Below, piece after piece: positions 800 through 17,469 of a DNA stretch of 24,740 nucleotides. Each line of letters begins with the position of its first letter. The stretch's first letter is position 1. Source of the DNA: a virus (taxonomy: Duplodnaviria; Caudoviricetes); IMG/VR virus record IMGVR_UViG_3300031683_000036, positions 1-24,740 of that record, one strand, 5' to 3'. A model generated the notes under the pieces. The model worked only from the letters and a program-made list of their open reading frames with translations, was not told the DNA's origin and searched no databases. The translations under genes and the position numbers were made by a program.

Positions 800-1119
800 A
801 AGGAACAGTTATCGAGATTAAGGAAGTACAAGTTATTTCTGACAAGTTTAAGAAGCAAGAGGTTATTCTTAAACAGGAGGGTGTAGAGTATGACGCTGAC
901 ATTCCTATCGAGTTTATACAGGATAAAGGCATAGAACTTGTGAATGGCTTAAAAGTAGGTCAGTCGTACGAAATAGACATTAATATAAGCGGTAGAGCTT
1001 GGAAGGATCGTTACTTCGTCAGCTTGAAAGGTTGGAAGGTTGCAGAAGCATCTGAATCTACTGAATCCACAAGAAGAGCAATAGCTGCAGATGATGGAGC
1101 TGATGCCTTCCCCTATTAA
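790..1119 (+). CDS. DUF3127-family single-stranded DNA-binding protein
   Basis: FKKQE..IEFIQDK..LKVGQ...INISGRAW..RYFVSLKGWK pattern, plus an acidic SSB-type tail DDGADAFPY. Confidence 0.8.
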   Translation: MQLKGTVIEIKEVQVISDKFKKQEVILKQEGVEYDADIPIEFIQDKGIELVNGLKVGQSYEIDINISGRAWKDRYFVSLKGWKVAEASESTESTRRAIAADDGADAFPY

Positions 1120-1152
1120 ACGAGTATTAGATATACTCAAATGGTTAAATTT

Positions 1153-1185
1153 GGAGGAGCTTTAAGTAGTTCCTCCTTTTTTTTT
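1153..1185 (+). terminator. Intrinsic terminator after SSB
   Basis: Stem GGAGGAGCT (1153-1161)/AGTTCCTCC (1168-1176) with one G.U pair, followed by T9. Confidence 0.85.
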
Positions 1186-1204
1186 ATACATATCAGTATA
1201 ATTA

Positions 1205-1236
1205 TTAGTTTAATTAAATACTTATTTGTATATTCG
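1205..1236 (+). promoter_or_regulatory. Bacteroidota-type promoter variant (sRNA A)
   Basis: TTAG(1205-1208)-N20-TATATTCG(1229-1236); shares TTATTTGTATATT with the element at 1330-1342. Confidence 0.55.
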
Positions 1237-1240
1237 TCTA

Positions 1241-1303
1241 ACATAACTAAATTTTTAATACTACCACTAAAACCCTCATTGTCACGTGAGGGTTTTCTTT
1301 TTT
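1241..1303 (+). ncRNA. Candidate antisense sRNA A (body ~1241-1268 + terminator 1269-1303)
   Basis: Promoter upstream, no plausible ORF, terminator AAAACCCTCA/TGAGGGTTTT + CTTTTTT. Body is complementary to 15885-15907. The TSS is inferred. Confidence 0.6.
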
Positions 1304-1312
1304 ACATTAACA

Positions 1313-1344
1313 TTAGATTATTTAATATATTATTTGTATATTGC
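1313..1344 (+). promoter_or_regulatory. Bacteroidota-type promoter variant for the replication initiator leader
   Basis: TTAG(1313-1316)-N20-TATATTGC(1337-1344). Confidence 0.55.
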
Positions 1345-1348
1345 ACCC

Positions 1349-1429
1349 ATCGAGTAGAGGCGATACTTATAACATTTTTACAAAAACCTATTTCAGCGAG
1401 CCCTCTACCTCCTGAGATAGGTTTTTTTT
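1349..1429 (+). promoter_or_regulatory. Structured leader/attenuator with loop-loop complementarity
   Basis: Hairpin 1: ATCG/CGAT with loop AGTAGAGG. Hairpin 2: 1382-1400/1409-1426 with loop CCCTCTAC, ending in a T8 run (1422-1429). GTAGAGG pairs with CCTCTAC. Confidence 0.65.
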
Positions 1430-1447
1430 ATACCAAATAGTTAAATT

Positions 1448-2254
1448 ATGAAAATCAAATCCGTATTAAGTCAGGGAGCGTTTTGGCAAATCAATAAGTC
1501 ATTAGCTCAAAAGGTAGGTTTAGAGTCTGCTTTATTATTATCCGATCTTATAGATAGGGAATCTTATTTTGAGGGTAGAGATATGTTGATTAATATTAAT
1601 GGTGAAGGTTATTTCTTTGTAACTAGTAAGCAGATAAGCGATGCAACTACGTTATCATATAGGAAACAAAAGAAGTGCATTGCAGTGCTTGAAGATGAAG
1701 GAATGATTAAGACTTTTTTGCGAGGTGTTCCTGCAAAACTACATTTTACTATATGCGAAAGCAAGATTTGGCAAAGTGTAAATACTAGTATTAGCGAAAC
1801 GCTAAAACTAGATTTAGCGAAAACGCAAAACAAGAGTGAGCGAAACGCTAAAACTATTAATAATAATAAAGAATTAATAATAAAGAATAATAATAAAGAA
1901 CAATATAAAAAGGTTGAGAATTATTTTGACAATATTCTGATAGATAATTTATTTAAAGAATTTTTAATATTAAGAGTATCTTTAAAAGCTAAAAACACAG
2001 ATAGGGCTGTAGGGCTTATATTAAAAAAATTAGAAGGACTATCTCCAGAACTACAAACGGAGATGCTAGAGCAATCAATTGAGAACAGTTGGAAGAGTGT
2101 ATTCCCTATTAAAAAACAATTCAACAAAGCAGAACCTACAAGCCTAAGCAAACACTACTTCCCTGATATGTTTAAAAAGGAAGAGAACCCTTTACCGATA
2201 GAAACAAAGATTCTAAGCACTGGAGATATGAACGACTTTTTTAGTAAACCATAA
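1448..2254 (+). CDS. Phage replication initiator (N-terminal wHTH, C-terminal replisome-organizer-like domain)
   Basis: NKSLAQKVGLESALLLSDL...FFVTSKQI..TTLS..KQKKCI..L...GMI wHTH, low-complexity linker with DNA repeats, C-terminal FKEFL..R...MLEQSIENSWKSVF. Confidence 0.75.
   Translation: MKIKSVLSQGAFWQINKSLAQKVGLESALLLSDLIDRESYFEGRDMLININGEGYFFVTSKQISDATTLSYRKQKKCIAVLEDEGMIKTFLRGVPAKLHFTICESKIWQSVNTSISETLKLDLAKTQNKSERNAKTINNNKELIIKNNNKEQYKKVENYFDNILIDNLFKEFLILRVSLKAKNTDRAVGLILKKLEGLSPELQTEMLEQSIENSWKSVFPIKKQFNKAEPTSLSKHYFPDMFKKEENPLPIETKILSTGDMNDFFSKP
1793..1900. repeat. Putative origin: iterons plus AT-rich 13-mers inside the initiator gene
   Basis: AGCGAAACGCTAAAACTA at 1793 and 1839, with a variant at 1816 (23-nt period). 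TAATAATAAAGAA occurs exactly at 1861, 1875 and 1888. Confidence 0.75.
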
Positions 2255-2256
2255 AA

Positions 2257-2288
2257 TTTGCTTAATCCGATAATTAGAATTACATTTA
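2257..2288 (+). promoter_or_regulatory. Bacteroidota-type promoter for gene 2305
   Basis: TTTG(2257-2260)-N20-TACATTTA(2281-2288); 2272-2289 is 17/18 identical to 3515-3532. Confidence 0.6.
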
Positions 2289-2304
2289 CCAAAACAAAAC
2301 AACT

Positions 2305-2979
2305 ATGAAGGAAATAGGAAAAGAACCAAGCGATCAACTATTAAAATTCTGTGAACTAACGATTAATAAATGCTTGTTTGAGATGAGCCAAAAGAAGTCT
2401 TTAGAAGATGCCTCAATAATGGCGAACATATTAATGACTGATTTGAACGACAGCTTCTACAGACTAACTCAGCAAGATGTAGTTCAAGCATTCCATAGAG
2501 GAGTAAGAACAGGAGAACAGTTAGCAATCAATCCTCGAACGTGGTGTAACTGGTTAAATTCTCAGAAGTTGAAATCTAACGCCACACGCATCAATTCATC
2601 ACAGCTTAACGAGAAGATGTTAATTGAAAGTAAATGCAGTAGCGTTGATAAAAAGCAGGTTCTGAAGGATTTCTTAGAGCTTTGTGTAATTGAACCATAT
2701 GAAGAATATTGCAAAGATGAAGACATTATACTGCAAGGAGTCAATCAAATATTCATTTGGCTTGAGAAAAACGGCTTTCTATTTGTATCAGACGAGGAGA
2801 AGGAAAAGATTTGGACAAAGGTACAAGGCACGATTAAGAAGCGGAAGATGTTCACGCATAACAATGAGAAGCAATTCCATCCAGTAATTATGTGCAGAGA
2901 ATACGCCATCATGAATTTATTCAAAGAAATGCGTGAGTCAAAAGTTGATTTGCGAAGTGAAATTTTAAAAGCTATTTAA
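2305..2979 (+). CDS. Putative replication accessory protein (helicase-loader position)
   Basis: 224-aa ORF right after the initiator; helical LTQQDVVQAFHRG motif. Function is inferred from position only. Confidence 0.45.
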   Translation: MKEIGKEPSDQLLKFCELTINKCLFEMSQKKSLEDASIMANILMTDLNDSFYRLTQQDVVQAFHRGVRTGEQLAINPRTWCNWLNSQKLKSNATRINSSQLNEKMLIESKCSSVDKKQVLKDFLELCVIEPYEEYCKDEDIILQGVNQIFIWLEKNGFLFVSDEEKEKIWTKVQGTIKKRKMFTHNNEKQFHPVIMCREYAIMNLFKEMRESKVDLRSEILKAI

Positions 2980-2981
2980 TT

Positions 2982-3158
2982 ATGAACGAAGAAATAAGTA
3001 AACTATTAGAAGAGAATGCCTTTAACGTAGCCAATTCAGGCACTGGAAGTCATAAAGATATTGGAGGAGAAAAGGAAGTTCAGAAGGCTTGGCAAATAAT
3101 ACAGAAGAAGATTAAGAAAATAGATGCAGCCTTTTACGAAGTAATCAAAGAACGATGA
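2982..3158 (+). CDS. Hypothetical protein (58 aa)
   Basis: MNEEISKLLEEN...FYEVIKER fills the gap; ATGA overlap with the next gene. Below the track cutoff. Confidence 0.7.
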   Translation: MNEEISKLLEENAFNVANSGTGSHKDIGGEKEVQKAWQIIQKKIKKIDAAFYEVIKER

Positions 3159-3499
3159 AATCAAAAGAAGATGATTTACAGGTTGCAGTAGTTACCTACT
3201 TGAAGCTAAAATATAAAGCTCTTTACTGTGCTTCTTTAGGTGGTCAATACCAAAAGCACATATCTCAAAGAATGAAAGCTAAAAGAACTGGCTACGTTGC
3301 AGGATTCCCTGACCTATTCATTTACGAATCCAAAGGTGATTACAGCGGTTTAGCTATCGAATTAAAAGTAAAAGGTAACTATGCCTCACCTAAGCAAAAG
3401 GATTGGATAGAGAAGCTAAACGCTAGAGGGTATTCAGCTCATGTATGCACAGGCTTCGACAACGCAAAGGAAGTGATAGACAATTATTTTAATCAATAA
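3155..3499 (+). CDS. VRR-NUC domain nuclease (PD-(D/E)xK; resolvase-like)
   Basis: EDDLQ...GYVAGFPDL...IELK..G..SPKQKDW..L..RGY motif set. Confidence 0.85.
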   Translation: MKSKEDDLQVAVVTYLKLKYKALYCASLGGQYQKHISQRMKAKRTGYVAGFPDLFIYESKGDYSGLAIELKVKGNYASPKQKDWIEKLNARGYSAHVCTGFDNAKEVIDNYFNQ

Positions 3500-3531
3500 T
3501 TAGTACATCTCGAAAATTAGAATTAAATTTA
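3500..3531 (+). promoter_or_regulatory. Promoter variant, probably giving a leaderless transcript
   Basis: TTAG(3500-3503)-N20-TAAATTTA(3524-3531); the ATG at 3536 lies only 4 nt downstream. Confidence 0.5.
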
Positions 3532-3535
3532 CGGA

Positions 3536-3691
3536 ATGAAACAGACAAACAGCAAAAGAGTAATGCCACCTATACACAAACAAACAGCTTTCGAGCTTAT
3601 GTTTGGCTGGAGTGGCACAATAGAAAAGGTAAGATTAAAACCATTGAAACTAGAGAAAGGAGCGTCTAGAGTTAATGGCGTAAGGATTTAG
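3536..3691 (+). CDS. Hypothetical protein (51 aa)
   Basis: MKQTNSKRVMPPIHKQTAFELMFGW...VNGVRI, TAG at 3689-3691. Below the track cutoff. Confidence 0.55.
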   Translation: MKQTNSKRVMPPIHKQTAFELMFGWSGTIEKVRLKPLKLEKGASRVNGVRI

Positions 3692-3880
3692 AGGGGTTCT
3701 ACTTGAGTGAATCAATAACTATTGAACGGCGTAACATTCGGGAGGGGATCTGTCAGATGTTGAGTGAAGTGAGTAAGCTACTAGAACGCTGCGAATTAGT
3801 TTAAACCATTGGGGTTTAAAAGTCAGAGTTAGGGAGGGCGGGATTCCTCCCTAACCATGGACTAACTAAAAGTAACGCAA
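3692..3880 (+). ncRNA. Candidate structured non-coding RNA upstream of the GIY-YIG gene
   Basis: GC-richer gap with nested stems: GTTCTA/TAGAAC, TCAAT/ATTGA, AACAT/ATGTT, TTTAAACC/GGTTTAAA, GTTAGGGAGG/CCTCCCTAAC, AGTC/GACT, TGCG/CGCA. No family recognised. Confidence 0.5.
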
Positions 3881-3882
3881 AA

Positions 3883-4365
3883 ATGAAGAAATGTACGAAA
3901 TGCAATATAGATAAAGACTTAATAGATTATCCTAAGCAATCTAGTAAAAAGTCAGGGTTAGCTTCTCAGTGTAAGAAATGTGATAATTTTAGAAATAGAA
4001 TTTACCACCTATCTAACTTAGCAAAATCTAATATTAAAAGTAAAATATACCGAGATTCACTTAAAGAAAATGTTGTGTATAGAGTTTCAGTCGAAGGTAA
4101 AGGTTCTTATATTGGAAGTACGACTTGCGGACTACTAGCAAGGTTAGGACACCACAAAGGGTACTTATGTAGAGGTGAGCATAAAAACCATAAACTACAA
4201 GCCATATATAATAAGTTAGGCTGGGATGTGTTTAAATTCAAAGTCATAGAAATATTAGAATCGGATGTAGACCTAAAGGTTAGGGAGCAATACTATATTG
4301 ATAACAATAAAGAGTCATTAAACATAGCAACGGCTAACAAAAAAACTAAAACAATACTAATCTAA
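3883..4365 (+). CDS. Zinc-finger + GIY-YIG endonuclease
   Basis: N-terminal CTKC...CKKC; VVYRV..SYIGST..R...H...REQYYI..N matches the GIY-YIG motif order. Confidence 0.8.
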   Translation: MKKCTKCNIDKDLIDYPKQSSKKSGLASQCKKCDNFRNRIYHLSNLAKSNIKSKIYRDSLKENVVYRVSVEGKGSYIGSTTCGLLARLGHHKGYLCRGEHKNHKLQAIYNKLGWDVFKFKVIEILESDVDLKVREQYYIDNNKESLNIATANKKTKTILI

Positions 4366-4388
4366 AGTAGTCGAATTCGACCACTTTA
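4363..4388. repeat. 26-bp imperfect palindrome
   Basis: TAAAGTAGTCGAATTCGACCACTTTA, one mismatched pair, no U-tract. Confidence 0.7.
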
Positions 4389-4401
4389 AAACAAGACTAA
4401 G

Positions 4402-4620
4402 ATGGAAGCACGAGAGATAGACCACATGCTTGAGCTAGGATACTGGATTCAGGTAAGTCCATTAGCTAATGCAGGTTCAGGTTGGATATGCGGAATATAT
4501 AAACGAGGAAAGATTTCAGGCAACTGGATAACGGAAGTGTCTAAAAAGTTCGATAACCCGCTAGGTTGTTTTGAGTGGGCTGATAAAGAGATTGTTCAAT
4601 TAATAAACAAAGTAAAATGA
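4402..4620 (+). CDS. Hypothetical protein
   Basis: 72-aa ORF in operon context; no motif recognised. Confidence 0.65.
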   Translation: MEAREIDHMLELGYWIQVSPLANAGSGWICGIYKRGKISGNWITEVSKKFDNPLGCFEWADKEIVQLINKVK

Positions 4621-4751
4621 AAGACGAGAAGAAAAAACCTACAGAAGTAGCCGAAGCAATGTTTGAGAATTGGCTGAACGATTTAGAAGATAAGGAACAG
4701 CCCGAAGCGTGTTCGATTGATAACCCAGACTGCGAGAATTGCGGTTCATAA
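4617..4751 (+). CDS. Small acidic protein ending CSIDNPDCENCGS (44 aa)
   Basis: ATGA overlap with the upstream gene, TAA at 4749-4751; next ATG at 4762. Below the track cutoff. Confidence 0.7.
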   Translation: MKDEKKKPTEVAEAMFENWLNDLEDKEQPEACSIDNPDCENCGS

Positions 4752-4761
4752 AAAACTAACT

Positions 4762-5118
4762 ATGAGTAAGATAGGAATAAACGAAGTGCTAGAGCTTATT
4801 AATGGATTAACCGAAGCTTTAGAAGACTCAATGGAGTCAAAAGATTTGCTATTCAATTTAGTAGATAGGAATATAAATGACATTGCTGTACTAGAACATC
4901 AAGTTGATGAACTACTGTCTGAACGAAAACCTACAATAGAGGATAAGGTATGTCAGAAGATTCAAGAACGTGCTGAGATGGGTTTAAATAAATATGGCAC
5001 GACTATGGAGAGGACTGACCTTAGTATAGAAGATTGGCTAACTCATGCTCAAGAAGAATCTTTAGACTTATCTATCTACTTAGAAAAAATAAAGAGCTTA
5101 CTACCTATTGTTAAATAA
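4762..5118 (+). CDS. Phage protein with a MazG-like/all-alpha NTP-pyrophosphatase-like C-terminus
   Basis: ATG at 4762 preferred. GLNKYGTTMERTDL..WLTHAQEESLDLSIYLEK carries an EExxD helix motif; the N-terminal part looks coiled-coil. Confidence 0.5.
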   Translation: MSKIGINEVLELINGLTEALEDSMESKDLLFNLVDRNINDIAVLEHQVDELLSERKPTIEDKVCQKIQERAEMGLNKYGTTMERTDLSIEDWLTHAQEESLDLSIYLEKIKSLLPIVK

Positions 5119-5137
5119 TAAAGTGTATATTAGCAAA

Positions 5138-5196
5138 GTATTTCATACATAGTTGTTTTGGTGGGGATGTGGTGTGAAAGCTGCATCCCCATTTTT
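5138..5196 (+). ncRNA. Candidate antisense sRNA B (body ~5138-5161 + terminator 5162-5196)
   Basis: -7-like TATATTAG at 5126-5133 (no clear -33). Stem TGGGGATGTGG/CTGCATCCCCA + T5. Body is 20/22 complementary to 2295-2316. Confidence 0.65.
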
Positions 5197-5219
5197 GCGA
5201 CTATACAAAAACAAAAACT

Positions 5220-5387
5220 ATGAGAGGAATTGTAAACCATTCAATACTAAAAGGAATTAAAAAAGGCAAGAAGATGCACGTGATCAGAAGATACTTAGCT
5301 ATTTGCTATGGTATTAAGGTAGGTCATAAAGTAATGCTCACAAGGTATGGCAACATTAAAAGAAGATTTAGCAGCACATTACGATGA
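5220..5387 (+). CDS. Small basic hypothetical protein (55 aa)
   Basis: MRGIVNHSILKGIKKGKKMHVIRRYL...; A-rich leader; overlaps the sigma factor start. Below the track cutoff. Confidence 0.6.
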   Translation: MRGIVNHSILKGIKKGKKMHVIRRYLAICYGIKVGHKVMLTRYGNIKRRFSSTLR

Positions 5388-5856
5388 TTTGTATAGGATA
5401 GCCTTAAAGATTACTAAGACTACAGCAGACGCAAAGGATTTAACTCAGGACATATATATCATTCTGCTTGAGTACGATCAAAGGAAGCTACAAGTTATTT
5501 TTGACAATGGGCATTTGGGGTTTTGGGTTACTAGGGTAATGTGTAACCAATACCTAAATGCTAATTCTAAGTTTAAGCGTAAGTATTACGGTAAGCTTAG
5601 GACTGATAAAGATAACGACCAGCACTTGGTTAATCTAGTGGACGAAGAGTATGAAGACGATACTAGAATCGACATGATTAACGAAGCTATGAACGACTTA
5701 CATTTCTATGACAGGTCTTTATTCAAAGTCTATACAGAAACAGACCACACAATTAGAAGCCTTGCAGCAGCGACAGGGATAAGCACTACAAGCATATTCT
5801 CAACGCTCAAGAAGGTCAGAAATAAGATTAAAGATGAAGTTAAAAACAAGTACTAG
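5347..5856 (+). CDS. Phage ECF-like RNA polymerase sigma factor
   Basis: Region 2: YDDLYRIALKIT..ADAKDLTQDIYI...FWVTRVMCNQY. Region 4: AMNDL..YDRSLF..TIRSLAAATGISTTSI...LKKVRNKIK. Confidence 0.8.
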   Translation: MATLKEDLAAHYDDLYRIALKITKTTADAKDLTQDIYIILLEYDQRKLQVIFDNGHLGFWVTRVMCNQYLNANSKFKRKYYGKLRTDKDNDQHLVNLVDEEYEDDTRIDMINEAMNDLHFYDRSLFKVYTETDHTIRSLAAATGISTTSIFSTLKKVRNKIKDEVKNKY

Positions 5857-6205
5857 AACCTATCAGGAGAGAATGAGTATCTGTAATGGATGCCCTCACT
5901 TCAGGAAATCTCTTAGTCAATGTAAAAAGTGTGGTTGCTTCATGAAGGTAAAAGCACAGATAGCATTCACTAGATGTCCTGTAGGTAATTGGGAAAGGGA
6001 GAACGACCTAACCAAAGACCAACTTAGTATATTGAAACGATTGCTAAATCAAATCGGTTCAGATAAGATAAACCATAGTGATAATGTAGGAGTTACCAAT
6101 CTATACAATGAAATCTTCGGAATGAAGAAGCAAGTTTCTAAATGTGGTTCTTGTGTAGCTCAAACGATAAACGAACTTAAAGAAATACTTAAAAGTTATG
6201 AGTAA
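5834..6205 (+). CDS. Cys-rich putative metal-binding protein
   Basis: ICNGC..QCKKCGCF..K......CP.G.W plus a C-terminal CGSC. Confidence 0.6.
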   Translation: MKLKTSTRTYQERMSICNGCPHFRKSLSQCKKCGCFMKVKAQIAFTRCPVGNWERENDLTKDQLSILKRLLNQIGSDKINHSDNVGVTNLYNEIFGMKKQVSKCGSCVAQTINELKEILKSYE

Positions 6206-6425
6206 AAATATAAAACCAATTTTCATTATAGGGGTACCCGACACATTTAGCAGTGAAGAGCAATCAGATATAGTAACAAGGGTTTCACAAAGGCTTGACG
6301 AATATCATGTGATGACTTATCATACAAGATCCTTTGAGCCTAAATTTGAATGTTTCAATGCTGACAATTTCACAGACATAAATCTAGAAGAACTAAAGAA
6401 GTTTATAGATGAAAATAGAAAGTAG
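6198..6425 (+). CDS. Hypothetical protein
   Basis: 75-aa ORF overlapping both neighbours. Confidence 0.65.
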   Translation: MSKNIKPIFIIGVPDTFSSEEQSDIVTRVSQRLDEYHVMTYHTRSFEPKFECFNADNFTDINLEELKKFIDENRK

Positions 6426-6858
6426 AAGGATAAGCGAGTTAAAGTTTGCAGAGTATAATCCACGAACGATTAACAAGAAGCAATTTAAGGATTTAAAAGC
6501 AAGTTTAAAGAAGTATAGTTTAATTGATCCAATCATTATAAACTCTTCTAAGGATAGAGAGAACATTATCATAGGAGGGCATCAACGCTCACGTGCTTGG
6601 CTTGAATTAGGAAACGATACAATATTATGCGTAGTGTTGGACTTATCTTTAGCAGATGAGATGGAGCTTAATTTACGCTTGAATAAAAACGGTGGTAAAT
6701 TTGACGATGATTTACTCTTGAACTATTTCGATGAAGAACTATTATTTGAGGTAGGTTTTACAGTAAACGATTTGAATATTAACCTCGACAAGTACGAAGA
6801 CAATACTTTAGCAGAAGAAACTAAAGATGTTTGTGAGTGCTGTGGAGAAAAACTTTAA
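6409..6858 (+). CDS. ParB/Srx N-terminal domain protein
   Basis: LKFAEYNPRTI...LKASL..Y...DPIIIN....IIGGHQR..AW..LG; C-terminal CECCG. Confidence 0.8.
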   Translation: MKIESRRISELKFAEYNPRTINKKQFKDLKASLKKYSLIDPIIINSSKDRENIIIGGHQRSRAWLELGNDTILCVVLDLSLADEMELNLRLNKNGGKFDDDLLLNYFDEELLFEVGFTVNDLNINLDKYEDNTLAEETKDVCECCGEKL

Positions 6859-6860
6859 CT

Positions 6861-6941
6861 ATGACAACACCAATAATAATATTTTTTACAGTAGTATTCA
6901 CCTCGATATTGGTGGAGAAGTATATCAGACAGAATCCGTAA
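6861..6941 (+). CDS. Small membrane peptide (26 aa)
   Basis: MTTPIIIFFTVVFTSILVEKYIRQNP; fills the gap exactly and has a TAATG overlap with the HNH gene. Confidence 0.5.
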   Translation: MTTPIIIFFTVVFTSILVEKYIRQNP

Positions 6942-7207
6942 TGCGTAAACACACCAAAATATATCTAGAGTTCTTTAACTTTGATGAGTTGGATTATATC
7001 CCTTGCGAGGTATGTCATTCACCTGCTCAAGACATTCACCACATCGAGGCTCGTGGCATGGGAGGTAGTAAGTTAAAGGATTACATCGGTAATCTACAAG
7101 CAGTGTGCAGACCTTGCCACATCAAGTACGGAGATAAAAAACAATTCAAGGATATGCTAGTAGAAATACATTTAAACTATATGGAAAAGTATGGAAAACA
7201 AGACTAA
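6941..7207 (+). CDS. HNH endonuclease (packaging-region type)
   Basis: ATG at 6941 preferred; CEVC...DIHHI..RGMGG.....NLQAVCRPCH. Confidence 0.85.
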   Translation: MRKHTKIYLEFFNFDELDYIPCEVCHSPAQDIHHIEARGMGGSKLKDYIGNLQAVCRPCHIKYGDKKQFKDMLVEIHLNYMEKYGKQD

Positions 7208-7430
7208 GATGCTTCAAGCAAAGTTAGAACATCAATTACGAAACACAGTTAGGGAAACATCAAGAGAACCTAATTTGATTGTTATGCATCCATTAACTTG
7301 GACTTACCTTATACATGAAGTTACTTTACACATGAGGTTAGGTGTATATATGCAAGACTCAAACCTTATGTATAGAGGAATTAAAGTTCGTAGGAGTTTA
7401 GATATGAATGAGGGCGAATTTGAAATGTAG
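7191..7430 (+). CDS. Hypothetical protein
   Basis: 79-aa ORF overlapping the HNH stop. Confidence 0.6.
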   Translation: MENKTKMLQAKLEHQLRNTVRETSREPNLIVMHPLTWTYLIHEVTLHMRLGVYMQDSNLMYRGIKVRRSLDMNEGEFEM

Positions 7431-7434
7431 AAGT

Positions 7435-8070
7435 ATGGAAATTAGCAACGAGTGCAACATGGAACTAATGGCTAGGTATGAAGATAATCACTTTGATTTG
7501 GCTATCGTGGATCCTCCTTATGGTGGTAATGATGCGATAGGTTTAAAAGATAACACATCGAAAAACAAACAAGCAACAAAAAGAACTGACTACAGTGTAT
7601 TTGAAAATATTGCTCCATCAGCTGAATATTTCAACGAATTAAAAAGAGTATCAAAAAACCAAATAATTTGGGGAGTAAATTTTTATAGTAATTTTGATTT
7701 ATCTGGCGGTCGTTTATGTTGGGATAAAAAAGGGACTGCGTTTGGTCGTGCTGAACTTGCCTATCTATCTATGACTAAAAGCGTAAATATTTGTGAAATT
7801 ACTTGGAACGGAATGATTCAGCACGACATGAAGAACAAAGAGCAACGAATACACCCTACACAAAAACCAGTCAAATTATACGAATGGCTTTTAATGAACT
7901 ACGCAAAGCAAGGAGACAAAATACTCGACACACATCTAGGAAGTGGCTCAATAGCTTTAGCGTGTCATAATTTAGGATTTGATTTAACGGCTTGTGAATT
8001 AGATAAAGAGTATTTCGATGCTAGTCAGAAGCGTTTAAAGCAACATCAATCACAATTAAGGATGTTATAA
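7435..8070 (+). CDS. DNA N6-adenine/N4-cytosine methyltransferase (beta class)
   Basis: DPPY catalytic motif precedes HPTQKP and the SAM-binding ILDTHLGSGS. ATG at 7435 preferred. Confidence 0.9.
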   Translation: MEISNECNMELMARYEDNHFDLAIVDPPYGGNDAIGLKDNTSKNKQATKRTDYSVFENIAPSAEYFNELKRVSKNQIIWGVNFYSNFDLSGGRLCWDKKGTAFGRAELAYLSMTKSVNICEITWNGMIQHDMKNKEQRIHPTQKPVKLYEWLLMNYAKQGDKILDTHLGSGSIALACHNLGFDLTACELDKEYFDASQKRLKQHQSQLRML

Positions 8071-8071
8071 A

Positions 8072-8431
8072 ATGAAAGAAACTGAAGAACAGAATCGCAC
8101 TAAATTAGCTAAAGTGCAGATGCTTAAAGCATTAGAGAAAACGCTTGGAATTGTTACAGGTGCTTTGAAGATAGCTGAAGTAGGTAGGTCGCAGTATTAC
8201 AAGTGGTTAAGGGATGATGAAGCCTTCGCTGCTAAGGTTAAGGCAATGGATAACCTAGTACTTGACTTCGCAGAGAGCAGTTTAATGAAGCAGATTAAAG
8301 ATGGTAATCATTCAAGTACTCAATTCCTTTTAAAGAACAAAGGGAAAATTAGAGGGTACGGTGATAAGTTAGATATTACCAGTAATGACGAAACGATTAA
8401 AATACATATAGACCTTGGAGATAAGTCCTGA
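8072..8431 (+). CDS. Putative terminase small subunit (HTH)
   Basis: LKALEKTLGIVTGALKIAEVGRSQYYKWLRDDEAF HTH; sits immediately upstream of TerL. Confidence 0.75.
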   Translation: MKETEEQNRTKLAKVQMLKALEKTLGIVTGALKIAEVGRSQYYKWLRDDEAFAAKVKAMDNLVLDFAESSLMKQIKDGNHSSTQFLLKNKGKIRGYGDKLDITSNDETIKIHIDLGDKS

Positions 8432-9725
8432 ATTTACGAGTAAGCAAAAGGATTGTTTACGCTACCTATTCGATGATTCCACTAATGAGGTGCTATTTGG
8501 TGGTGCTGCTGGAGGTGGTAAGTCTTGGGTAGGTTCTGCTTGGCTTGTAACTATGTGTTTAAGGTATCCTAAGACACGATACTTAATGGGAAGGTCTAAG
8601 TTAGATGCATTAAAGAAGACTACGTTAAACACGTTCTTTGAGGTGTGTGGTGCTTGGGGTTTAAAGAGTGGGGAACATTATACTTTCAACGGTTCATCTA
8701 ACATCGTTACATTCAAGAACGGTTCAGAGATAATACTTAAAGATTTATTCTTATACCCATCAGATAGAAACTTCGATAGTCTTGGTTCATTAGAGATTAC
8801 AGGGGCATTCATTGATGAGGTGAATCAAGTAACATACAAGGCTGTAAATGTAGTGCAGTCTAGAATCAGATACAAGCTAGATGATTACGGAATCATTCCA
8901 AAGCTTCTAATGACTTGCAACCCTGCTAAGAATTGGGTTTACACAGAGTACTACAAACCTGCTCAATTAGGTACATTAAAAGACTACCGTAGATTTATCC
9001 CTTCATTAGTAACAGACAATAAATTTATATCAAAGCATTATGAGAAGCAGTTATCGAAGCTTGATGAAGTTTCTAAACAGCGTTTACTATTTGGAAACTG
9101 GGAATACGATGCCTCAAGTGATTCACTTATTAACTACGATAGCATCTTAAACCTATTCGATAACAAAGGAGCGGAAGGCGAGAAGTACATCAGTTGTGAT
9201 GTTGCTCGTATGGGAGAGGATAAGTCTGTAGTGATGTTGTTCGAAGGGCTTCAGGTAGTAATGATTAAGACGTTTGATAAGAATACGATTACAGAGTTAG
9301 CTGAATACATTAGAGAACTACAGAAGAATCACCAAGTTAAGCTGTCTAATATTATAGTCGATAGTGATGGTGTTGGTGGTGGGCTTCAAGATGTACTCAG
9401 ATGCAAGGGGTTCATTAACAACGCATCACCAATTAAGAAGGAGAACTTTCAGAACCTTAAAACTCAATGCTATTATAAACTTGCAGACTTAATTAATAAA
9501 GGGCAGATAGGTATAACCATTAGAGATGTAGATACACGCAAACACATCACAGAAGAACTAGAGCAGGTTAGAACTAAGGACATAGATAAGGACGGAAAGC
9601 TGAAGATAGTACCTAAGGACGTGGTTAAGTCTGTGATAGGTCGTTCTCCTGATTACTCCGATGCTTTAGCGATGAGAATGTTTTATGAGGTTAAGCCTAA
9701 AGTTGGAAGGTATGCAGTTAGGTAA
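8415..9725 (+). CDS. terL: Terminase large subunit
   Basis: Walker A GGAAGGGKS, Walker B GAFIDE, motif III TCNP; nuclease motifs CDVAR.G.D, DSDGVGGG, RSPDYSDA. TTG start. Confidence 0.95.
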   Translation: MEISPEFTSKQKDCLRYLFDDSTNEVLFGGAAGGGKSWVGSAWLVTMCLRYPKTRYLMGRSKLDALKKTTLNTFFEVCGAWGLKSGEHYTFNGSSNIVTFKNGSEIILKDLFLYPSDRNFDSLGSLEITGAFIDEVNQVTYKAVNVVQSRIRYKLDDYGIIPKLLMTCNPAKNWVYTEYYKPAQLGTLKDYRRFIPSLVTDNKFISKHYEKQLSKLDEVSKQRLLFGNWEYDASSDSLINYDSILNLFDNKGAEGEKYISCDVARMGEDKSVVMLFEGLQVVMIKTFDKNTITELAEYIRELQKNHQVKLSNIIVDSDGVGGGLQDVLRCKGFINNASPIKKENFQNLKTQCYYKLADLINKGQIGITIRDVDTRKHITEELEQVRTKDIDKDGKLKIVPKDVVKSVIGRSPDYSDALAMRMFYEVKPKVGRYAVR

Positions 9726-9756
9726 ATTCTAATATGTTAAAAATAATCACAATTAG

Positions 9757-9787
9757 TTTGGTGTTCTATTAATTTGTAGTATATTTG
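9757..9787 (+). promoter_or_regulatory. Consensus Bacteroidota housekeeping promoter
   Basis: TTTG(9757-9760)-N19-TATATTTG(9780-9787), followed by hairpin TATCGC-AATGAA-GCGATA at 9791-9808. Confidence 0.85.
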
Positions 9788-9824
9788 TCCTATCGCAATG
9801 AAGCGATAACCTAACCACAACGCT

Positions 9825-10088
9825 ATGAGCTTTACTTTAAACTATACTTACAACGCTAATAACTTCTCACAAGACTTTGAAACATTATTAGAAGCTACTA
9901 CAGAACTTGAAAGAATAGGTGGTGATGCTTATGTAATGTTTACTACTAACAACGACTGGACGTTCAACTATAAGATCCAAGCTAACGAAGTGGTTTTCTC
10001 TGTAGGTAAGTCGGATCTTTACAAAGGATCTAAATTTGGAACTATAGGGCACTTAAGACATATGATATTAACACAAGGGATTGCGTAG
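9825..10088 (+). CDS. Moron-like hypothetical protein (87 aa)
   Basis: Has its own host-type promoter and lies between terL and the tail genes; no motif recognised. Confidence 0.7.
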   Translation: MSFTLNYTYNANNFSQDFETLLEATTELERIGGDAYVMFTTNNDWTFNYKIQANEVVFSVGKSDLYKGSKFGTIGHLRHMILTQGIA

Positions 10089-10109
10089 TATTAATTAATT
10101 GTATATAAA

Positions 10110-10140
10110 TTTGGTAGTTCAATATATTGTTTTATCTTTG
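10110..10140 (+). promoter_or_regulatory. Consensus Bacteroidota housekeeping promoter (sRNA C)
   Basis: TTTG(10110-10113)-N19-TATCTTTG(10133-10140). Confidence 0.85.
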
Positions 10141-10144
10141 TAGG

Positions 10145-10200
10145 GAACTAAAATAAACGCTCCCTCGATTGTAAGGCTCTCCAAACGGAGGGCTTTTTTT
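10145..10200 (+). ncRNA. Candidate antisense sRNA C (body ~10145-10172 + terminator 10173-10200)
   Basis: Perfect promoter, no + strand ORF, stem AAGGCTCTCC/GGAGGGCTTT in a T7 run. Body carries AAACGCTCCCT, complementary to 1473-1483. Confidence 0.65.
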
Positions 10201-10212
10201 GTTTATAGTTAT

Positions 10213-10238
10213 ACAAAACAAACAATTTAAGATTATTA
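10213..10238 (+). promoter_or_regulatory. Candidate late promoter (phage sigma)
   Basis: ACAAAA-N14-TTATTA; identical spacing recurs at 20276-20301. Confidence 0.45.
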
Positions 10239-10243
10239 AATAG

Positions 10244-10846
10244 ATGAAGTTAAACATTCCAACAGACTTGAGTGAGATTACATTAGGGCAACTACAATCT
10301 CTGACTAAATTAGAGGCTAGTGAACTGAATGAACTCGAACTACAGAAGCAAACGATTGAGCTGCTAACCAATGCAGACAGGGGTATTATAGATCAGATTA
10401 AGTTAAACGACTTGAATGATGTGTATAGTAAACTGCTAGGTTTATCCAAGTCAAGCGATAAACTACACCAACTTATTTCAATTAATGGGGTGCAATATGG
10501 ATTTCACCCTAACCTTTCAGAGATAAGTACGGGTGAATTTGCTGATTTAGACACCCTATGCCAAGACTTTAACGACAATTTGCACCTTATTATGGCGATA
10601 TTATACAGACCTGTAGAGAAAGAAGCTGCTGGTAAGTATAGTATTGAGGCTTATGACGGTGATGTAGATGAAAGAGCTAGGTTATTCAGGAAGAATATGA
10701 AGGCAAATGTAGTTAATTCTGCATTAGTTTTTTTTTGGACTATCGGAAACGACTACTTGAGAGATTCGCTAACCTCTTTACAGGAGGAACAGGCGACCAA
10801 AAGCAGCAAAGCTTCGGTAAGAAGTGGGGTTGGTATTCAATACTAA
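10244..10846 (+). CDS. Putative tail assembly chaperone (G-like, frame 0)
   Basis: IP.DLSEITLGQ...YGFHPNLSEISTGEFADLD...LHLIMAILYRP; the VFFW codons carry a T9 slippery run. Confidence 0.65.
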   Translation: MKLNIPTDLSEITLGQLQSLTKLEASELNELELQKQTIELLTNADRGIIDQIKLNDLNDVYSKLLGLSKSSDKLHQLISINGVQYGFHPNLSEISTGEFADLDTLCQDFNDNLHLIMAILYRPVEKEAAGKYSIEAYDGDVDERARLFRKNMKANVVNSALVFFWTIGNDYLRDSLTSLQEEQATKSSKASVRSGVGIQY

Positions 10847-15749: not shown

Positions 15750-15892
15750 TGATAAACGAAGTTATAAAAGGTATTTGTCAAGGCAAAATAAAACCTAGCA
15801 AAGAGAATGAGATAGCGTTTGGATTGAATGAATATCCGACCACATTTAAGAAAGCTTGGAAACAAATAAAAGAATTATGGCACAAGAGGTAG
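15749..15892 (+). CDS. Hypothetical protein (47 aa)
   Basis: MINEVIKGICQG...PTTFKKAWKQIKELWHKR; TAATG overlap upstream; overlaps the tape measure start. Below the track cutoff. Confidence 0.65.
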   Translation: MINEVIKGICQGKIKPSKENEIAFGLNEYPTTFKKAWKQIKELWHKR

Positions 15893-17469
15893 TATTAGAT
15901 TTAGTTGCCAATGACAAGGCTTCTAAAGTTGTAAAAGGAACATCAAAAGAGATTAAAGGAGCTACAACAGAAGCAACCTTAATGAGTGGAGCTATGAACA
16001 CTGTAAGAGGTGCGATGGTTAAGGTTAAGGCTACTGGAAAATTAATGTTTGGAAGCATTAAGGCAGGACTTATTAGTACTGGTATCGGTGCGTTTGTAGT
16101 TGTGATCGGTTCGCTTGTGGCGTATTTTACACAGACTAAAAAAGGGGCTGAACTACTAGAGCAAGCATTTGCAGGAATAGGAGCAGCGATTTCAGTTCTT
16201 ACAGATAGGATTTCTGCTATTGGTGGAGCTATTATGAAAGTCTTTTCAGGAGATTTTAAAGGGGCAGCCGAAGATGTAAAAGGGGCTTTAAGTGGTATAG
16301 CAGATGAGATAGTATCTGAGGTGGATGCAGCGGTAAGACTTAAGGGTGAACTTCAAAATATTACAGATGCCACAAGAGGGTTTAATATTGAAAAGGCTAA
16401 AACAAACCAAGAGATTGCTAAGGCTTTATTATTAGCAGAAGATGAACACGCAAGTAATGAGGTTAGACTAGAAGCATTAAAAGCTGCATTAGTATTAGAA
16501 GAGCAAACTACAGCTAAACAATTAGAACTTCAACGAAGAAAAGTAGCAGCCATAGAAGAAGAGGTCGGTTTAGGCGAAAGTTTAGAAGAGGATTTACAAC
16601 GATTGAATGATGAGAAGATTCGTTTAATTGAATTAGAAACGGCATCTATAAAACAAAAGAAAAAGGTAGTTACTCAGGTAAATGACTTTGAGAAAAGCAT
16701 AAACGCAGAAGCAGTAGCAAGATATAATAAACAGTTAAAACTTAAAGAGGAATCTGATAAATTAGAATCCGATAGACTAATTAAACAAGCCGAATACAGA
16801 GAAACGGCTATTGATGCGATTACAAACAAATTCAAACTTGCAAGAGATGAGAGTGAAATAGAAGCCGTTGAAAGGGAAAAGGATAAGCAATTAGCAGAAC
16901 TCGAAAGATTAGAAGCAAGTGAACAAGCCAAGGCAGATGTAGAAGCTTTCTTTAGCGATAAGATAGTAGGCATTAAAACCACACAAGCAGCCAAAGAAAA
17001 GAAGTTAGAACTAGCAAAAGTCAAAGCAACAACAGATACAAACAACGCTACACTTGCATTGGTTGGAGGTTTAGCTGGTGCATTAGGTAAGTTAGCAGGA
17101 GATTCAAAAGGTTTGGCTATCGGTGAAGCTACAATTTCGACTTACTTAGGAGCAACGAAAGCACTAGCAGCAGGAGCAGGTACTCCAGTAGGTTATATTA
17201 ATGCTGCAGCAATTATAGCAACAGGTTTATCGAATGTTAAAACTATTATAAGCACTGATGTAGGGAGTGGTTCAGGTGGGAGTGTTCCTAACGTTGGTTC
17301 TGTAGGTGGAAATATAGCAGCATCAATTCCAGCTCAAACAGGTTTAGGCGATGTAGTAGATACCATTAACGGACAAGGACAACAACCAGTACAAGCATAC
17401 GTAATATCACAAGAAGTAACAGACAGCCAAGAGGCTCAAGCATATATTAATAACCAAAGAACCCTATAA
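15877..17469 (+). CDS. Tape measure protein
   Basis: ATG at 15877 preferred. Ala/Gly-rich hydrophobic helices (STGIGAFVVVIGSL), a long coiled coil and C-terminal QPVQAYVISQEVT. Confidence 0.75.
   Translation: MAQEVVLDLVANDKASKVVKGTSKEIKGATTEATLMSGAMNTVRGAMVKVKATGKLMFGSIKAGLISTGIGAFVVVIGSLVAYFTQTKKGAELLEQAFAGIGAAISVLTDRISAIGGAIMKVFSGDFKGAAEDVKGALSGIADEIVSEVDAAVRLKGELQNITDATRGFNIEKAKTNQEIAKALLLAEDEHASNEVRLEALKAALVLEEQTTAKQLELQRRKVAAIEEEVGLGESLEEDLQRLNDEKIRLIELETASIKQKKKVVTQVNDFEKSINAEAVARYNKQLKLKEESDKLESDRLIKQAEYRETAIDAITNKFKLARDESEIEAVEREKDKQLAELERLEASEQAKADVEAFFSDKIVGIKTTQAAKEKKLELAKVKATTDTNNATLALVGGLAGALGKLAGDSKGLAIGEATISTYLGATKALAAGAGTPVGYINAAAIIATGLSNVKTIISTDVGSGSGGSVPNVGSVGGNIAASIPAQTGLGDVVDTINGQGQQPVQAYVISQEVTDSQEAQAYINNQRTL

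Follow-up and report, generated by a model that had tools for sequence, protein, structure and literature searches.

A conserved candidate antisense RNA beside the sigma operon of a likely Flavobacteria-type phage, with complementarity to early-gene leaders

Several described regulators share a trait with the locus studied here, as far as the parts of the sources cited below describe them. GibS of Bacteroides thetaiotaomicron is trans-encoded and covers start codons with an unstructured 5’ seed, in a phylum without obvious Hfq (PMC7366714). The C4 antisense RNA of phages P1 and P7 derives from the start of an operon in which a small gene and a developmental regulator are encoded (PMC8198154), rnTrpL of Sinorhizobium meliloti is a leader RNA, released by premature termination, that base-pairs in trans (PMC6614838), and PreS, OOP and VpdS are phage-encoded base-pairing RNAs that affect the infection cycle (10.1101/2024.10.31.621285). 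At the protein level, T4 RegA is a single phage factor that blocks the AU-rich start regions of many (~30) phage messages (PMC3014915). Here we analyze the virus record IMGVR_UViG_3300031683_000036 (Duplodnaviria; Caudoviricetes), the whole of which, 24,740 nucleotides (24.7 kb), we call the window. Its unit B, a promoter-body-terminator unit just upstream of the phage sigma operon, is a well-supported candidate for a conserved antisense RNA aimed at start regions.

As one genome was unable to settle the question, relatives were collected and long records fetched. The preliminary description of the window had listed three gene-less units, A, B and C, each with a body complementary to the 5’ end of a distant phage gene, and only B is retained across relatives. 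We examined 42 clade loci, defined by a sigma protein at least 49% identical and including some near-duplicates; ten further close loci were excluded as repeats, nine of them already seen or duplicating a seen record. In 42/42 loci B adjoins the 5’ side of a 55-codon gene and the phage sigma gene, and in 42/42 its promoter box, core and terminator are present, across 19 distinct bodies and with sigma identity down to 49%. No B-type unit was found at 13 distant loci that have short sigma matches. When 16 representatives were aligned, the promoter and a U-rich core were best retained, and the terminator swapped letters and retained its pairs, with two-sided changes in 7 of 10 pairs. At the level of sequence B thus has its own promoter, an intrinsic terminator and no open reading frame (ORF), and no ATG occurs on the plus strand of the window’s B body, so that no leader peptide is encoded there. 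The terminator scan listed A and C and not B, whose hairpin (~-21 kcal/mol) is yet followed by only five T. A covariance model of B matched only B in the window and gave distant units 26-39 bits, partly from promoter and terminator alone, and a pattern scan for B returned 28 stretches, the 7 new ones lacking a terminator. A small minus-strand peptide at B was also considered and rejected: a start-like pattern exists, but frame and peptide vary among relatives, and the hairpin has no T run in that direction (judged by eye).

The B bodies mirror A-rich leaders, for example AAAACAACTA, that stand ahead of early and accessory genes and that we refer to as leader tags. Early and late labels were set by gene order and start codons were chosen by an A-richness rule. 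Among 11 representatives, a perfect complement to B of at least 10 nt occurred at 24 of 183 early starts, at a single late start (1/278), which belongs to an accessory gene, and in none of 174 coding interiors; in 9 of the 11, the number of shuffled bodies doing as well was 11 of 300 or fewer. Lowering the threshold to 8 nt in 15 records gave 78/236 early against 19/363 late starts. For each body the fit is also closer to the leader tags of its own phage than to the tags of relatives (permutation p for three scores: 0.0013, 0.0004 and <0.0001; p = 0.002 in a first set of 14), and two phages with altered cores (G045 and G048) have 14-15 nt matches to their own leaders. B therefore covaries with its tag family; in the single pairs named in the preliminary description, B with gene 2305, A with the tape-measure gene and C with the initiator, pairing is not conserved.

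Of the claim that B pairs with gene 2305, the part that stands is that of a conserved start-region antisense candidate, and the part that falls is 2305 as a fixed partner. That gene takes first rank in just 2/15 records, the window and the near-identical G030, and ranks 2 to 30 elsewhere, one record having no start found; L012 carries an identical B body and pairs with its 2305 start at only -8.5 (energies are in kcal/mol throughout), and L005 has the same B and a weaker 2305 match. In the window lineage a second B target, matched over 11 nt, is the first gene of an early operon beyond the window (seen in G030 and G031). We conclude from these complementarities that the putative partner of B is a family of early and accessory leaders rather than gene 2305. 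Gene 2305 had no match in the protein-family scans, so that its label as a replication gene comes from its position; the atlas gave it only a weak DUF6633 lead (11% of members). The protein begins MKEIGK in the window and MEIGK in relatives, three substitutions at 2298-2311 shifting the ATG and lengthening the B match.

Table 1. Coordinates of the units, predicted pairing sites and associated genes in the window.
Feature	Position	Strand	Basis or status
B host-type (Bacteroidota sigma-A) -7 promoter box	5126..5133	+	sequence; such a box in 42/42 clade loci
B body, forming a seed predicted to be single-stranded, complementary to leader tags and start codons of early genes	5138..5162	+	complementarity, opening energies, conserved core in alignment
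B intrinsic terminator, with its hairpin at 5163-5190 and a T run ending at 5196	5163..5196	+	letters vary among relatives, pairing retained
Post-terminator strand predicted to pair with seed core 5148-5156 in read-through RNA	5197..5204	+	covariation, 11 representatives
Best predicted B target in the window phage, spanning the gene 2305 leader and start codon (13 perfect pairs and 6 more)	2295..2316	+	
Basic 55-codon protein (gene 5220), overlaps sigma gene; 15 K+R, no D/E	5220..5387	+	ORF
Phage sigma factor, presumed late-gene activator	5347..5856	+	PHROG sigma matches, Pfam Sigma70_r2
Unit A: box 1229-1236, open body 1241-1268, terminator 1269-1303	1229..1303	+	lineage-restricted
A-complementary site, codons 4-10 of tape-measure gene (start 15877), allele-specific	15887..15907	+	
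Unit C: accessory-gene promoter and leader joined directly to slot terminator (10173-10201)	10133..10201	+	likely empty slot
Accessory gene 9825, carrying a host-type promoter of its own and co-occurring with C	9780..10088	+	
C-complementary site, codons 8-12 of replication initiator	1469..1483	+	not conserved

The terminator of B sits between its promoter and the sigma operon, whose sigma factor would, judging from gene order, activate late genes. Transcripts that read through this terminator are predicted to contain a second covarying element, in which the bases just behind the terminator pair with the seed core (Table 1). This helix keeps a fixed register in 11 of 16 representatives, chosen for sharing the helix-forming core, with 88 of 99 cells paired and compensatory changes that include one column with three Watson-Crick pair types; permuted partners gave 78.3 +/- 2.3 (none of 50,000 reached 88) and slid registers gave 23-55. 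Opening the seed is predicted to cost 10.2 kcal/mol in the read-through RNA versus 1.7 in the terminated RNA. We read the helix as a decoy that would disarm the seed in the sigma message, the rival readings being a processing site or a block acting in cis. The basic 55-codon protein, which found no family match in protein-family scans and no usable atlas match, is a candidate, and only that, for a factor permitting read-through.

The same helix is a point for the view that B works in cis alone, attenuating the 5220-sigma operon as its leader: the terminator and extended helix would set the sigma level, through a hidden 5220 start or an RNase III-type site, with the resemblance to early leaders arising incidentally. 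Pairing of B with the 5220 start is predicted in some members, the predicted read-through fold pairs the 5’ arm with that start in many, and the body, when present, makes the start region much less open in 7 of 16 representatives; the predicted effect on the 5220 start is mixed overall. What sets this view back is that neither the whole body with its own leader nor the arm with its own 5220 start shows an own-partner advantage (p = 0.80 each). The body is moreover conserved in the five representatives that lack the helix, two of which have the longest early-tag matches (14-15 nt). We consider purely cis action doubtful on these grounds, and similar units elsewhere that have no gene downstream also stand against it.

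Such units occur in a distant clade (terminase 70% identical), where the interval between the terminase and the following gene often contains a minus-strand promoter-body-terminator unit that has no gene downstream; some phages of this clade lack the unit. In G008 and G010 the body has matches of 12-14 nt, which take in the ATG, at three or four early starts, with the top five matches of G008 beating 120 of 120 shuffles, and the matches in G015 and G028 extend over 11-12 nt. Trans action is favored because these units, without a downstream gene, match early starts, and on complementarity they support such action for the unit class as a whole. In the cultured phage P12024L (record L312) we found one promoter-body-terminator unit, at 9826 after the holin gene, whose body has 11-12 nt matches to two starts that are not clearly above shuffles (130, 189 and 18 of 200).

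These results suggest, with somewhat better than an even chance in our judgment, that B is a multi-target anti-leader small RNA that would lower the translation of presumed early genes, cut off from the late-activator operon and with its seed disarmed in read-through. Host polymerase would make B from the start of infection; the terminated 59-nt RNA would accumulate and cover the A-rich leader tags and start codons of tagged early and accessory messages, reducing their translation; and in transcripts that pass the terminator the seed would fold onto the next 8 bases, switching the antisense off in the sigma message. What the computation shows is layout, sequence, conservation, complementarity and two kinds of covariation; that B is transcribed and terminated, that it pairs with messages inside the cell and represses them, and when it would do so, is inferred, as are the early and late labels.

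Several observations weigh against this proposal. Only two starts reach at least 10 nt in the window’s own lineage, two representatives fail to beat shuffles (G042, 196/300; G044, 52/300), G050 has no early match of 9 nt, and the helix is missing in 5 of 16 representatives. In the distant clade, the own-start matches of G009 and G012 span only 9-10 nt (2 of 6 distant units tested), and two of the best four units come from nearly the same phage. AU-rich tracts pair easily with many partners, the starts were picked by their A-richness and divided into early and late by gene order, and the representatives are related, so that the permutation p-values overstate independence.

An extension of the proposal, which we offer only tentatively, is that the one promoter forms an RNA-only early-to-late switch: stopping at B would silence early genes through the shared tag, read-through would lock the seed and make the late sigma factor, and A-like units would be plug-in RNAs with variable targets, including the tape-measure alleles of rival phages.

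A further possibility is that B is a general anti-start RNA directed mainly against messages of the host or of rival phages that share the A-rich Bacteroidota start style. Bacteroidetes starts rely on upstream adenines rather than Shine-Dalgarno sites, according to the part of the source used here (PMC6847099), the bodies pair well with the tags of related phages too, and lambda PreS, as described in the cited part of that report, offers a precedent for host targets (10.1101/2024.10.31.621285). The own-phage advantage and the scarcity of late-start matches point instead to tuning on the phage’s own early genes, making this possibility quite improbable. As for the host itself, the closest cultured match found was Nonlabens phage P12024L/S (capsid 30% identity), and the window promoters follow the TAnnTTTG type of Flavobacteria, this consensus and the -7 box offset (-12 to -5) being taken from section 15 of PMC9723704. 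Because of this nearest match and these promoters we infer a Bacteroidota host, and the window phage is likely a marine, Flavobacteria-type phage. In its gene order, single-strand binding protein, initiator, nucleases and sigma factor come first and terminase, tail, capsid and portal follow; relatives measure ~29-31 kb. A scan of the genome collection yielded no usable host, and no repressor or integrase appeared among the proteins scanned.

The preliminary description had gone further, arranging A with the tape-measure gene, B with 2305 and C with the initiator into a reciprocal network. Its physical elements are present: in all three units a TAnnTTnG-type box (at 1229, 5126 and 10133) is followed by a body of 22-28 nt that lacks an ORF and then by a hairpin and T residues. 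Transcription is predicted to start near 1241, 5138 and 10145 (placing the -7 box at -12 to -5), giving predicted RNAs of 63, 59 and 57 nt for A, B and C with bodies that are all predicted to be open. A sigma-70 promoter scan gave 49 sites versus 58.9 expected, the TAnnTTnG type lying outside its coverage, and an Rfam scan to E = 1 found nothing at A, B or C and two weak matches, both elsewhere in the window. A look-up of sequencing runs listed no RNA data set covering window 1000-10400. Pairing was assessed by duplex energy and opening energy. The three matches are likewise where they had been reported, at ~-21 kcal/mol each; ranked by energy against the whole plus strand, the sites of A and B come first and that of C third. 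The B site spans the start codon and costs 1.2 kcal/mol to open, and those of A and C, which fall within coding sequence at codons 4-10 and 8-12 respectively, cost 7-8, leaving net pairing of -12.3, -18.0 and -12.6 kcal/mol for A, B and C.

Shuffled controls separate the three. A and B exceed them modestly, and C does so only when the search is limited to gene starts. Across the whole window the observed Watson-Crick score was reached by 11, 4 and 44 of 250 shuffled bodies for A, B and C, and near gene starts by 1, 0 and 2 of 250; the observed energy was reached at 40 gene starts by 3, 0 and 1 of 120. Whole-window energies against 40 shuffles leave thin margins for A (-21.1 vs -18.0 +/- 1.7) and B (-22.0 vs -20.0 +/- 1.6) and none for C, which is no better than shuffles (-22.2 vs -22.9 +/- 1.6).

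The reciprocal three-way wiring was not borne out, as no pair is conserved in relatives, and for A and C an open seed complementary to distant start regions is found only in the window. Apart from the window, A occurs only as identical copies in five closely related contigs, and since the copies are identical there is no covariation to assess. A pattern scan for its core returned 43 stretches, namely the 5 identical copies, 2 window-type tape-measure starts and others that were unrelated by eye. The window’s tape-measure allele is the best A partner of 18 alleles (-21.1 vs -5.4 to -16.0), but the idea of A silencing the tape measure as a conserved link fails in G001, where an identical A pairs with the tape-measure start at only -7.9 kcal/mol and the best start for A is that of a ParB-like gene. 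A may be a real accessory RNA, and we read it as a lineage-specific orphan unit. The pairing of C with the initiator is not conserved either: L005 and G001 have the same initiator start without C, and related initiators pair at -14.4, -7.6 and -2.9. One could still suppose that the network was newly assembled in this lineage, given that each match beats shuffles at gene starts, that the bodies are open and that the tape-measure allele is the best for A; with the poor tape-measure match in G001, the lack of C and weaker 2305 match in L005, and the third rank of C, we find this very improbable.

C likely represents an emptied accessory-gene slot, though it may have a recent, local function. The interval from the terminase to gene 10244 is an accessory slot, which among 26 close records has the window form in 3, is absent in 6, holds genes in 11, takes one other empty form in 1 and is cut off or rearranged in 5; ten of the 11 gene-filled slots end in a related terminator, and one is cut off inside the slot. 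Over its first 22-23 bases C matches exactly the promoter and leader that precede an early accessory gene. Self-pairing of the C seed is predicted only if transcription starts by 10142, and the seed is open at the literature offset, so we do not count this against C. C-rich slot tails in G003 and G005 had no good target (best -12.1 and -10.8). The idea that all bodies are functionless scars, that is, inverted or emptied leader copies beside ordinary terminators, fits this origin of C and the genes that occupy its slot in relatives, but is barely credible for B, whose body is conserved while terminator letters turn over and which shows compensatory changes.

Other features were noted in and around the slot. 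A C-rich tract just 5’ of the slot terminator (window 10158-10167; L008, L014-L022, L166) is kept whatever gene fills the slot, with no target found. The 5’ end of gene 9825 carries a short perfect hairpin (9791-9808), and similar ones head accessory genes in L018, L019, G005, G033 and G034. Upstream of the 10244 homologue, L166, L171 and L172 have a second structured element, ~50 bases in size, ahead of the slot terminator, and L181, L183 and L221 have a tRNA-like sequence at the slot end. A motif of TACA, 14-16 bases and TATT upstream of gene 10244 (10203-10243) is kept across relatives and is a candidate promoter for the phage sigma factor.

Elsewhere, the initiator leader (1337-1430) has a host-type promoter, a small hairpin and a terminator, and the loops of the latter two (1354-1360 and 1402-1408) are complementary to each other. 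Both loops are changed yet complementary in G002, related leaders occur in other phages, and there is no Rfam match; by its sequence the leader resembles a loop-loop attenuator. A further gene-less promoter-body-terminator unit lies in the early region at L166:2978 (the same record as L119:13176), and at G005:6180, G007:22981, G024:8006 and L106:7096 (oriented coordinates) a promoter-like box and a very AU-rich body with weak start matches precede the terminator after a post-capsid gene.

For the shut-off of early genes in small Bacteroidota phages we found no explanation in the literature searched. If the proposal for B is right, a tag-reading RNA would be an RNA counterpart of T4 RegA and would account for the stereotyped early leaders, and the helix that locks the seed suggests a way for a single transcript to serve as repressor or as activator message. 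The ~70-base promoter-seed-terminator unit could also provide a simple knock-down tool for Flavobacteria. We found no description of such a phage RNA in the literature searched, a search that mostly left subscription journals outside, and term searches in three surveys of non-coding RNAs, whose supplements could still list the motif, returned no such RNA. No C4 or CI match was found at B in the Rfam scan to E = 1. Like C4, the P4 CI RNA is a phage immunity RNA that acts as an antisense.

Set beside the systems described at the outset, again as the cited parts of the sources present them, B differs from each. GibS, at ~145 nt, is encoded by the host and has metabolic targets, whereas B is phage-encoded, predicted to be ~59 nt long and directed to a shared leader tag (PMC7366714). 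C4 represses its own operon and holds lysogeny, whereas the best-supported partners of B are other genes and its build is a plain seed and terminator (PMC8198154). Unlike rnTrpL, B encodes no leader peptide on its strand and is tied to no known signal, and its seed-locking helix is absent from the rnTrpL abstract (PMC6614838). The likeness to T4 RegA is functional only, as RegA is a protein and B is non-coding and would act by RNA pairing (PMC3014915). PreS acts mainly on host genes and OOP is antisense to the cII-O mRNA, whereas B would read a tag shared by early genes, and none of these RNAs is so described in the part of the report cited (10.1101/2024.10.31.621285). B thus resembles GibS in its pairing, RegA in its effect and rnTrpL or C4 in its origin, and it is a member of none of these groups.

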